64,000 nucleotides of DNA, taken from Escherichia coli (GTDB lineage Bacteria; Pseudomonadota; Gammaproteobacteria; Enterobacterales; Enterobacteriaceae). Both the position numbers and the translations under genes were made by a program. The notes below the pieces were generated by a model. That model saw only the letters and a list, made by a program, of their open reading frames with translations, was not told where the DNA came from and did no database searches. Of this stretch, positions 20,040 to 23,694 are shown in pieces (position 1 is the first letter of the stretch; each line of letters opens with the position of its first letter). The stretch lies in assembly GCF_030013205.1 (NCBI RefSeq), contig NZ_CP122648.1; one strand, given 5' to 3'.

Positions 20040-21365
20040 ATGAGCAAAGTAACTCCCCAGCCGAAAATCGGCTTTGTTTCCCTTGGCTGTCCGAAAAACC
20101 TTGTCGATTCAGAGCGTATTCTCACCGAACTACGCACTGAAGGTTATGACGTGGTACCGAGCTATGACGATGCGGACATGGTGATCGTCAACACCTGCGG
20201 CTTTATTGACAGCGCGGTACAAGAATCACTGGAAGCCATTGGTGAAGCGTTGAATGAAAACGGCAAGGTAATTGTGACCGGTTGTCTGGGGGCAAAAGAA
20301 GATCAGATCCGCGAAGTCCACCCGAAAGTGCTGGAAATCACCGGGCCTCATAGCTATGAGCAGGTTCTGGAGCACGTTCATCACTACGTGCCAAAACCGA
20401 AACACAACCCATTCCTGAGCCTGGTGCCAGAACAAGGCGTGAAACTGACGCCGCGTCATTATGCCTATCTGAAAATTTCTGAAGGCTGTAATCACCGCTG
20501 CACCTTCTGCATTATTCCGTCTATGCGCGGCGACCTGGTGAGCCGTCCGATTGGCGAAGTGTTAAGTGAAGCGAAACGTCTGGTTGATGCGGGCGTTAAA
20601 GAGATTCTGGTGATCTCGCAGGATACTTCCGCCTATGGCGTCGATGTTAAACATCGTACTGGCTTCCACAACGGCGAGCCGGTAAAAACCAGCATGGTCA
20701 GCCTGTGCGAACAGTTATCGAAACTGGGGATCTGGACACGTCTGCACTACGTTTACCCTTATCCGCATGTGGACGACGTCATCCCACTGATGGCAGAAGG
20801 CAAAATCCTGCCGTATCTGGACATTCCGTTGCAGCACGCCAGCCCGCGCATTCTCAAACTGATGAAGCGTCCGGGTTCTGTAGATCGCCAACTGGCGCGC
20901 ATCAAACAGTGGCGCGAAATCTGCCCGGAACTGACCCTACGCTCAACCTTTATTGTCGGCTTCCCTGGCGAGACAGAAGAAGATTTCCAGATGCTACTCG
21001 ACTTCCTGAAAGAAGCGCGTCTGGATCGCGTTGGCTGCTTTAAATACAGCCCGGTTGAAGGTGCAGACGCCAATGCCCTGCCTGACCAGGTTCCGGAAGA
21101 AGTGAAAGAAGAACGCTGGAACCGTTTCATGCAGTTGCAGCAGCAGATTTCCGCCGAGCGCCTGCAAGAGAAAGTGGGCCGTGAAATTCTGGTGATTATC
21201 GACGAAGTGGACGAAGAAGGTGCGATTGGTCGCAGCATGGCAGATGCACCGGAAATCGACGGCGCGGTTTATCTCAATGGTGAAACCAACGTTAAGCCGG
21301 GTGATATCCTGCGTGTGAAAGTCGAGCACGCCGATGAGTACGATTTGTGGGGTAGCCGGGTTTAA
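20040..21365 (+). CDS. rimO: Ribosomal protein S12 methylthiotransferase RimO
   Basis: 441 aa radical-SAM MTTase with CxxxCxxC motif (CNHRCTFC) and TRAM domain. Confidence 0.95.
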
Positions 21366-21549
21366 TTAATCTTAAGGCAGATCTAACAAGGATATTGTTC
21401 TTCGATCTGCCTCTGCTACCCTTCCCGATGTCCTACCCTTACGCACAAAATCCCCTGACGCATAAATCGAGAAAAATGAATCGTACTCGAGGCAACTCTC
21501 ACTTTTTCACACCAAATTAAAGTTTTGATCGCAATTACTTGAAATAAGC

Positions 21550-21575
21550 GTAATGGTTACTATAGTAAACATTAC
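21550..21575. promoter_or_regulatory. Near-perfect 13-bp-arm palindrome upstream of the toxin gene; candidate autoregulatory operator
   Basis: GTAATGGTTACTA/TAGTAAACATTAC, one mismatch, ending 16 bp before the ATG at 21591. Confidence 0.5.
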
Positions 21576-21590
21576 CACAAGGATGGATGT

Positions 21591-21977
21591 ATGGGTGTGT
21601 ATAAGGCAAGACGATTCAGCCAAAGCACGAAAAAACTTGGTATTCACGATAAAGTTCTCATGGCTGCCGCTGAAGAAGTGATGCAGGGCATATGGGAGGC
21701 TGATTTAGGTAGCGGTGTCATCAAAAAACGTTTACCCCTCCAACAAGGAAAGAGTGGTGGAGCCAGAACAATTATCTTTTTTAAATCAGCAAATCATGTG
21801 TTTTTTTATGATGGTTGGTCCAAGAGTGGTCTAAGCAGTAAAGGAACCAAAGAAATCGAAGATGATGAACTGGCGGCCTACAAAAAAATGGCAAATGCAT
21901 TTCTGGCCTTTAGCACTAAGCAAATAGAGGATTTGATCGAAACTGGCTTTTTGATTGAGGTGAAAAATGAGCGATAA
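21591..21977 (+). CDS. Type II toxin-antitoxin RelE/ParE-superfamily toxin-like protein
   Basis: 128 aa ORF with KSGGARTIIFF core resembling RelE/ParE-fold toxins; 11-nt overlap with downstream HTH gene; not in this position in the K-12 gene order as I recall it. Confidence 0.6.
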   Translation: MGVYKARRFSQSTKKLGIHDKVLMAAAEEVMQGIWEADLGSGVIKKRLPLQQGKSGGARTIIFFKSANHVFFYDGWSKSGLSSKGTKEIEDDELAAYKKMANAFLAFSTKQIEDLIETGFLIEVKNER

Positions 21978-22296
21978 ATTACAAATGATGCTGGAAGATG
22001 CAAAGGAACTGAATGCACTGGGCCTGATGTCTGATAGTGAAGTTGATGCCATTGCCGTCATGGTCAAAGCTCGTGAAGTCAGCGCCCGTATAGCCAAAGT
22101 CAAATCAATGACGGGTGAAGAGATCAAAGCCATCCGCACCCGATACGGCATGTCACAATCCGTGCTGGCACATACAATGGGAATGTCAAAAGAAAGTGTC
22201 TCGAAATGGGAACGTAATGAAATAAAACCGAGCGGCCCGGCATTACGTATTTTGAATACATTGGCAATAAAAGGGCCGGAAGTTTTTGCAAAGTAA
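21967..22296 (+). CDS. HTH (XRE-type) DNA-binding antitoxin-like protein
   Basis: 109 aa ORF; C-terminal HTH (MSQSVLAHTMGMSKESVSKWERNE) with N-terminal extension; coupled to upstream toxin-like gene. Confidence 0.6.
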   Translation: MSDKLQMMLEDAKELNALGLMSDSEVDAIAVMVKAREVSARIAKVKSMTGEEIKAIRTRYGMSQSVLAHTMGMSKESVSKWERNEIKPSGPALRILNTLAIKGPEVFAK

Positions 22297-22325
22297 AATG
22301 TTTGCAAATGATTTACCACATTCAT

Positions 22326-22351
22326 TAGTACCCCTTGATTAAGGGGTACTA
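22326..22351. terminator. Bidirectional hairpin between antitoxin-like gene and convergent dgcI
   Basis: Perfect inverted repeat TAGTACCCCTT-GA-TTAAGGGGTACTA. Confidence 0.55.
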
Positions 22352-22365
22352 ACACTATTCTAATT

Positions 22366-23694
22366 CTACTGCCAGCTAATCTGCGCCCTGCCGTTTTTCT
22401 TACTCTTATACAGTCGCTCATCCGCCAGCATTTTCAAGCGTTCGACGGTAGTACATTCATTTGAATGCGCTACACCGATACTGGTGCTTAAATTAATGCT
22501 TCCCACCTGGAAATGAACAATTTCTTTTAGAATCGATAGCAACTCTTCCAGCGTTCCACCCGTATAAATCACCGCAAATTCGTCACCGCCGAAGCGGTAG
22601 ACTTTACCTTTATCTACGGGGATCTGTGATTTAAGGATTTTCACCACTTTCATCAACACTTCATCGCCCAGCAAATGACCGAAGGTGTCGTTGATGTTTT
22701 TGAATTTATCGACGTCAAACAGGCACAAATAACCGCCTTTTTCCGGCAGCGCTTTTAAATCTTCGTCAAAGGATTTTCTGCCCATTGCTTTGGTCAGGTC
22801 ATCCAGGAACGCCGAGTTATACAGACTGTAGAGTTTTTTGACATCGGCAGCCGAAAAGAAAAGCCCGCCATCCAGTACGCGTTCAAAATGGTTATTAATG
22901 ATGGCTTCTTTCTCCACAATACCACGATTAATCACTCTGCGTACCAGATAGAGGCAACTGACACCCGAAATCACTGCCACCAATGCGGCAAAGAAAATAA
23001 TCAATGTACAGACCCGCAAATAAACATCTTTTTTATACGCAAATACGTACAATCCGGTCGGCAAATAGGCGAAGTGCTCCATCGCTTCCGAAACGGTGAA
23101 GATGGCGTTTTTAGCATTAAATTCATCACCGGTCACCGGTTTACCGTTCTTAAACAGAGAGAACATCAGGTTCTCGCTATCCATCGCCAGCGATTTTGAC
23201 AGTAAAGAAAAACGCTCCAGACCAAGCAAAAATATCAGACTACGATTATGAGTTACCGGATAGAGGTAATAGACGAAGGTTTTACCGTCAAAAGAGATAA
23301 ACCCTGTATTTTTGACATGTCGATACTTCACAATCTGCATAATATCTGCACAATAATTTTTCTCGAACTCCTTTACCTGAATACATTCGTCACTGGAAAT
23401 CAGATAAGGACCGACATCGTACAAATAAGAGGGTGAAACCGAGTCGGCGTAAGCTGTGCGCAAACCAACCAACAGCTGTTCCTCCGTGGGGTTTAGCGTG
23501 TTGATGAGATCAATTGCCACGCTACGCCGATATTCAGCAATATTTGCCACCGCAAAAGCAGTATCAATAACGGACTGTTTCAGGCCATACACCCGTTCCT
23601 TTACCATTTGAGTGTAGATCCCGCAGGCAACTGCTGAAATCATGATAAAAATCAGCAGACTGACTGTAAGTACGAACTTATTGATTCTGGACAT
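22366..23694 (-). CDS. dgcI: Diguanylate cyclase DgcI (GGDEF)
   Basis: 442 aa, N-terminal TM/periplasmic region plus GGDEF domain (RFGGDEF motif). Confidence 0.9.

Follow-up and report, generated by a model that had tools for sequence, protein, structure and literature searches.

A probable HigB-2/HigA-2-type toxin-antitoxin operon in the rimO-dgcI spacer of Escherichia coli

What is the 1-kb segment that separates rimO from dgcI in some Escherichia coli chromosomes, and how did it come to lie there? The window studied here is a stretch of 64,000 nt from E. coli contig NZ_CP122648.1 (RefSeq assembly GCF_030013205.1). In this window, rimO ends at position 21365 and the convergent gene dgcI ends at 22366, leaving a gap of 1000 bases (21366-22365). 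Two plus-strand open reading frames (ORFs) occupy most of the gap. The segment is very probably a chromosomal HigB-2/HigA-2-type type II toxin-antitoxin operon. This particular allele is likely to be active. The module is an ordinary one. It belongs to a known family and is already annotated: in >1000 E. coli genomes the NCBI pipeline labels the first product "type II toxin-antitoxin system RelE/ParE family toxin" and the second a helix-turn-helix (HTH) protein.

The two ORFs encode proteins of 128 and 109 amino acids, and each has a Shine-Dalgarno sequence upstream (Table 1). An earlier reading of the DNA made without database searches (the sequence-only reading) had described this pair, with its 11-nt overlap, as a RelE/ParE-like toxin followed by an HTH antitoxin, in the toxin-first order of HigBA-type modules. 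The ORFs lie as it described them. Family profiles, fold, conserved pairing and operator layout bear this reading out, and the profile searches narrow both assignments, the first protein to PF06296 (HigB-2) and the second to a HigA-2/YiaG-like XRE protein.

Table 1. Features of the rimO-dgcI segment (positions in the window).
Feature	Position	Strand	Description
Toxin gene	21591-21977	+	PF06296 / HigB-2 family; ATG start; Shine-Dalgarno AAGGA at 21580-21584
Antitoxin gene	21967-22296	+	XRE-type HTH; ATG start; Shine-Dalgarno GAGGTG at 21957-21962; start overlaps the toxin 3' end by 11 nt
Sigma-70-like promoter	21539-21566	+	-35 TTGAAA (21539-21544), 16-nt spacer, -10 TATAGT (21561-21566)
Palindromic operator (predicted)	21550-21575	none	GTAATGGTTACTA followed by TAGTAAACATTAC; 13+13 nt, 12/13 positions complementary
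rimO-side hairpin	21375-21412	+	directly 3' of the rimO stop; 15-nt arms, 87% complementary
Downstream hairpin	22325-22352	both	perfect 12-bp stem, 4-nt loop; between the convergent antitoxin gene and dgcI

The toxin aligns to the whole of the Pfam PF06296 (RelE) model, from position 1 to 120 of 120 (E value of 1.1e-32, 113 bits). The same domain is present in all listed toxin homologues except two short fragments. In Pfam the toxin has no match to ParE PF05016, MqsR or the HigB-like family PF05015. It matches one family in PHROGs, of unknown function. A search of the PDB with the single toxin sequence gave no match even at E values up to 10. A profile of 23 toxin relatives gave significant matches only to chains of Vibrio cholerae HigB-2 (HigB2), at an E value of 1e-4. 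The toxin has the RelE/ParE (BECR) fold, begins directly at the first strand, and has HigB-2 as its best fold match.

The active site of HigB-2 consists of Lys49, Arg51, Arg64, Tyr82 and Lys84 (PMC5416850; PMC10098735). Alanine at Arg51, Arg64, Tyr82 or Lys84 lowers its activity 170- to 3000-fold (PMC5416850; PMC10098735). HigB-2 residues K49, R51, R64, Y82 and K84 align to K45, R47, R59, W76 and K78 of the E. coli toxin. Four of these positions (K45, R47, R59 and K78) keep the HigB-2 residue and do not vary among the 23 relatives, and W76 hardly varies. The toxin also retains the duplicated hydrophobic strand, as IIFF where HigB-2 has IIYY; in HigB-2 this duplication permits strand sliding. 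By analogy with HigB-2 (PMC5416850) and with Coxiella burnetii ToxP (PMC10098735), the toxin is predicted to be a ribosome-dependent mRNA endonuclease.

The antitoxin contains an XRE-type HTH domain at its C terminus (residues ~47-106) and an N-terminal extension of ~45 residues. It matches Pfam HTH_3 (E value of 3.4e-9), and residues 47-106 align to residues 38-96 of V. cholerae HigA-2 (5jaa; E value of 5.7e-4). In a confident AlphaFold2 (AF2) model of a fused toxin-linker-antitoxin (predicted template modelling score of 0.74), the first ~40 antitoxin residues form two helices with a predicted local distance difference test score >88. From this model and the HigA-2 precedent, the N-terminal ~45 residues are predicted to be toxin-neutralising helices. 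Matches to curated families fall below their cut-offs. They include the MqsA family TIGR03830, in the C-terminal half only (47.1 vs 61.8 bits), NadS NF041265 (36.7 vs 60 bits) and YiaG NF007481 (26.7 vs 110 bits; E value of 6e-6). By these scores the antitoxin is related to the NadS and YiaG families and is not an equivalog.

The pairing of the two genes is conserved. We scanned one genome per species, found 105 loci that encode relatives and kept 80. An antitoxin homologue lies directly downstream of the toxin gene in 77 of the 80, across many bacterial groups. In the 71 pairs with both ORFs delimited, the overlaps are mostly 4, 8 or 11 nt, which suggests translational coupling as a family trait. 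The E. coli segment has the general features of a type II system: small, adjacent, co-oriented and overlapping genes, with an HTH antitoxin and a palindrome over the operon's own -10 box. One of the loci found (L004; JAIJJM010000872.1, 1198 nt) is labelled as a Collinsella sp. metagenome-assembled genome. Its identity to the E. coli module and the dgcI end is 99-100%, and E. coli DNA contaminating a binned genome is almost certainly its source.

The promoter-like sequence upstream of the toxin gene has 10/12 consensus matches, and relatives carry TATAGT or TATAAT at the equivalent position. We infer from this sequence that it acts as the module promoter and is the single promoter of a toxin-first bicistron. 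The near-perfect palindrome that the sequence-only reading had reported just upstream of the genes is present. It spans the promoter spacer, the -10 box and the expected transcription start. None of 100 shuffles of the 110-nt upstream region gave a palindrome as good. Against an expectation of 0, the window contains the motif GTAATnnTTACTATAGTAAnnATTAC once. The closest enterobacterial relatives (L005-L007) conserve this motif, and looser variants of it occur in other relatives. In the window and in these relatives, the 26-bp palindrome consists of four GTAA/TTAC elements with a spacing of 7, 8 and 7 nt. This arrangement suggests two adjacent dimer sites. On its sequence, and by analogy with characterised operators, the palindrome is a predicted binding site for one or more antitoxin dimers. 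In strain PM7 (L087), position 21570 of the window has a C>A change, at one of the operator's variable "nn" positions.

Relatives repeatedly carry a palindrome that overlaps the -10 box, at 8-30 nt upstream of the start codon and with a sequence that differs from one subfamily to another. The 70 nt upstream of the toxin genes (L004-L083) contain at least three operator sequence classes that track the toxin and antitoxin subfamily. The closest enterobacterial relatives contain GTAATnnTTACTATAGTAAnnATTAC, Legionella contains TATAGTAAnnnTTACTATA, and more distant groups contain TATCACTnAGTGnTATAAT. Every class overlaps a TATAGT or TATAAT -10 box. This recurrence, together with the co-variation between subfamilies, backs the earlier proposal of a palindromic operator. 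The footprinted operator of V. cholerae HigA-2 begins after the -35 element and reaches over the -10 box (PMC11006873), and the operator here is placed in the same way.

The operon anatomy, family membership, toxin fold, catalytic residues, gene pairing and operator position come from sequence and comparison. The steps of the proposed mechanism are taken from the tested relatives V. cholerae HigBA2 and Coxiella ToxP/AntitoxP. The N-terminal segment of the antitoxin would wrap the toxin and hold it away from the ribosome. With or without bound toxin, antitoxin dimers would occupy the palindrome, block the -10 box and repress the operon. If the labile antitoxin were degraded or not resupplied, the toxin would be freed. 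Free toxin would then enter the ribosomal A site, cut mRNA and stop translation.

Several points weigh against assigning the segment to a working HigB-2/HigA-2-type system. The toxin is only ~15% identical to the structurally solved HigB-2. It has Trp (W76) in place of the catalytic Tyr82, and alanine at Tyr82 lowers HigB-2 activity 1200-fold (PMC5416850). NCBIfam holds no model that matches the toxin, and the antitoxin is under every curated NCBIfam cut-off. The two helices predicted at the antitoxin N terminus differ from the helix and strand of HigA-2, and the geometry of neutralisation may differ with them. We found no experiments on the E. coli module in the searchable literature, so we infer toxicity, neutralisation and DNA binding.

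The two hairpins that flank the module appear to be transcript ends. The rimO-side hairpin has a free energy of -16.2 kcal/mol (z of -3.3) and folds far better than shuffled sequence. It is likely to be the end of the rimO transcript in the long allele and to shield the module from rimO read-through. The downstream hairpin has free energies of -17.7 (+) and -19.3 (-) kcal/mol, with z of -5.4 (+) and -4.4 (-) against shuffled sequence. It is likely to be a bidirectional transcript end. The sequence-only reading had given this hairpin as perfect and as extending over 22326-22351; it is perfect but one base wider on each side. The rimO-side hairpin has no U-tract, nor does the downstream hairpin on either strand. 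The two terminators listed by the intrinsic terminator scan are intragenic, on the minus strand and at chance level. A permissive Rfam search of 21300-22450 matched no RNA family, so the 225-nt leader is not explained by a riboswitch or small RNA. A weak promoter-like site inside the antitoxin gene (22150-22178; 9/12 consensus) is probably meaningless, as such sites occur at chance level. A 196-amino-acid ORF on the minus strand (21831-22421) was rejected as a gene. It is antisense to both genes and is unannotated in every record.

The sequence-only reading had taken the segment for strain-specific, and this does not hold. The long (1-kb) allele is present at this locus in 1129 of 5426 complete E. 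coli genomes (~21%), and two other genera carry the module in the same neighbourhood. Nearly all other E. coli genomes have a short spacer. Carriers include O157:H7 strains and strain 042, and the module is absent from K-12, F11 and O111:H8. In K-12 MG1655, rimO lies directly beside dgcI with a 46-bp spacer and no such genes, as the sequence-only reading had stated; the presence of the two genes there would have refuted that reading. A divergent 869-nt allele in strain BS-01 (L086) was set aside. Its frames are full of homopolymer runs, and it looks like an assembly or sequencing error. In strain PM7, dgcI is annotated as a pseudogene without its N terminus.

The module was also described as an insertion between rimO and dgcI. 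It does sit there, but it replaces the whole 46-bp spacer, including its terminator hairpin, and is not a clean insertion. Between the convergent rimO and dgcI, the K-12-type empty allele (L001, 467-512) contains one strong hairpin with a 13-bp stem (free energy of -23 kcal/mol). The long allele lacks this hairpin and contains instead two unrelated ones, one on each side of the module. The two alleles have nothing in common from after the first five bases past the rimO stop to the dgcI stop, which is TAG here and TAA in K-12. At the module we found no target-site duplication, no flanking direct repeat and no mobility gene such as an integrase or transposase. Within the module, carrier lineages diverge by 0.9-1.4%, roughly as they do in the flanking rimO and dgcI. 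This divergence, too, does not fit a recent mobile-element insertion. The allele studied here differs from the O157:H7 allele by 8 synonymous and 2 non-synonymous changes. All four lineages compared encode the same antitoxin protein, WP_001280945.1.

The closest relatives outside E. coli lie in a similar setting. In Enterobacteriaceae bacterium UBA5654 (L005, 733-8212), the toxin and antitoxin are 74% and 78% identical to those of E. coli, and the order is bssR, rimO, one ORF, the module and gsiD. In Kluyvera sichuanensis (L006, 3333-8180), the identities are 68% and 74%, and the order is a bssR-like gene, the module and gsiD. Both genomes have the module beside the gsiD end, with bssR (and in UBA5654 rimO) on its other side; the neighbourhood is that of E. 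coli, but it lacks dgcI-pdeI. The ORF between rimO and the module in UBA5654 (2738-3688) encodes 316 amino acids. The flank-like divergence and the shared neighbourhood in other genera indicate that the module has long been an accessory allele of the rimO-dgcI spacer and is not a recent insertion. As these sequences read, it is either ancestral to the region or repeatedly exchanged with it.

Homologues on plasmids of Providencia, Moellerella, Xenorhabdus, Coxiella, Piscirickettsia and rhizobia are at most 58% identical, and the Providencia and Moellerella plasmids are conjugative. Three E. coli plasmid matches (records of 0.7-4.9 Mb) were rejected because they carry the chromosomal locus and are not true plasmid copies. 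These are the PLSDB records NZ_CP134663.1 and NZ_CP141089.1 (4.9 Mb each) and CP088669.1 (0.73 Mb), with the locus at 99.4-99.9% identity. The first two are chromosome-sized and appear to be mislabelled as plasmids. A 37%-identical toxin relative lies in Escherichia phage PhiR12_3 (PV340552.1, 4340-4657; recorded host E. coli ECOR13), where it is annotated as hypothetical.

Other accounts of the module were weighed against a working HigB-2/HigA-2-type operon. The sequence-only reading had raised abortive infection. If phage defence were the main role, shut-off of host expression by a phage would free the toxin. A defence function is discussed for RelE/ParE-superfamily toxins (PMC11980606), the module is an accessory gene pair, and a temperate Escherichia phage carries the 37%-identical toxin homologue. 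We nevertheless consider this role unlikely, and the suggestion finds no support at this locus. The toxin matches 0 of 5027 PADLOC models (PADLOC-DB 2.0), and antitoxin matches are confined to generic HTH or controller-protein models. The neighbours rimO, dgcI, pdeI and gsi are housekeeping or cyclic di-GMP genes, not defence genes. The allele is old, fixed in place and outside any variable island. Among the tested relatives, ToxP/AntitoxP was studied for toxicity, translation inhibition and promoter binding, and the V. cholerae higBA loci for mRNA cleavage and plasmid stabilisation, not for phage defence. It is less probable still that the toxin is a ParE-like gyrase poison, or acts on another non-ribosomal target, and is not an mRNA endonuclease. 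Its best sequence and fold matches are all to HigB-2, the alignment of relatives shows no variation at the basic catalytic residues of the RelE/HigB-2 type, and Pfam gives no match to ParE PF05016. ToxP, at 36% identity, inhibits translation.

The module could also be a decayed or domesticated remnant, with an inactive toxin and an HTH protein kept as a regulator, possibly of the neighbours. Both ORFs in the window are full length with intact catalytic residues, the gene overlap is coupled and the operator is intact, and synonymous changes predominate between lineages in both genes (8 vs 2). These features make a remnant improbable, even though decay is common among chromosomal toxin-antitoxin pairs and truncated toxin variants (73-122 amino acids) occur in some E. 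coli records. Conservation is higher in the antitoxin protein than in the toxin, and the long stay in the same neighbourhood of three genera could reflect a host function. That residence near rimO/bssR-gsi in three genera, with purifying selection in about one-fifth of E. coli, including O157:H7, suggests a possible host-level role. Abortive infection and anti-addiction against the related modules of Providencia and Moellerella conjugative plasmids are candidates. It is doubtful that the module has gained such a role beyond selfish addiction.

A HigB-2/HigA-2-type operon at this locus carries little weight beyond bookkeeping, because the family is described, structurally solved and already annotated. 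It may be useful in three ways. The E. coli member is an easy model for the PF06296 family in its native host, and it appears to be new to experiment in the searchable literature. The operators of the family vary in sequence with the antitoxin subfamily and always cover the -10 box, and they form a natural series for HTH-operator co-evolution. The module is also a clean and common presence/absence marker at rimO-dgcI that separates O157:H7 and 042 (with) from K-12, F11 and O111:H8 (without).

Among known systems, MqsR/MqsA and the Rts1-type HigB/HigA share the toxin-first order, a RelE-superfamily toxin and an XRE-type HTH antitoxin with the present module. The toxin matches neither MqsR nor the HigB-like PF05015 in Pfam. 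The C-terminal HTH of the antitoxin weakly matches MqsA models, but the N-terminal CxxC...CxxC zinc-binding domain is lacking. The antitoxin contains no cysteine, so it cannot form that domain and is not an MqsA.

The E. coli "relE-yiaG" bicistronic modules were described in silico by Gerdes (mBio 2025; PMC11980606). They resemble the present pair in having a PF06296 toxin upstream of a YiaG-like antitoxin with two N-terminal helices and a HigA-2-like HTH (PMC11980606). Their toxins have extended disordered N termini, unlike the toxin here. Literature searches yielded no link between the relE-yiaG proteins cited from E. coli VREC0535 and those of the present genes. The same 2025 review places HigB-2 in PF06296 and describes the family as ribosome-dependent mRNA endonucleases with toxin-first order (PMC11980606).

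The best fold match is the HigB-2/HigA-2 system of the V. cholerae superintegron (PDB 5JA8, 5JAA, 8A0X; PMC5416850, PMC11006873). Four of the five catalytic residues are identical, at an overall identity of only ~15%. HigA-2 and the E. coli antitoxin both have an N-terminal neutralising segment (predicted here) followed by a C-terminal HTH, and both operons have a single operator region that starts just past the -35 element and crosses the -10 box. The E. coli toxin is longer, with 128 amino acids and a longer two-helix C-terminal part, whereas HigB-2 has ~110. The antitoxin N terminus is predicted as two helices here and is a helix and a strand in HigA-2. The V. cholerae operator is TGTACGC(N5)GCGTACA, in contrast to the 26-bp palindrome of four GTAA/TTAC elements.

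The closest experimentally tested relative is ToxP/AntitoxP (CBUA0028/CBUA0027) of the Coxiella burnetii plasmid QpH1. ToxP is toxic and inhibits translation, AntitoxP rescues from it, and AntitoxP binds both ToxP and the promoter (PMC10098735). That system is plasmid-borne in an obligate intracellular host and has been tested, whereas the E. coli module is chromosomal and known from sequence. ToxP is 36% identical to the E. coli toxin over its full length (E value of 4e-24). AntitoxP is 33% identical to the antitoxin, including part of the N-terminal region. ToxP has Tyr as its catalytic aromatic residue and the E. coli toxin has Trp. The operator also differs, with TCACTTAGTGA in ToxP/AntitoxP and GTAATnnTTAC repeats here. 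Both systems have the toxin first and overlapping genes, and both toxins contain the motif KKR...GK(S/R)GG.R...G(W/Y).K. The ToxP promoter follows the same plan as the E. coli promoter, with its palindrome beside or over the -10 box, in the order TTGACA, the palindrome TCACTTAGTGA and TATAGT.

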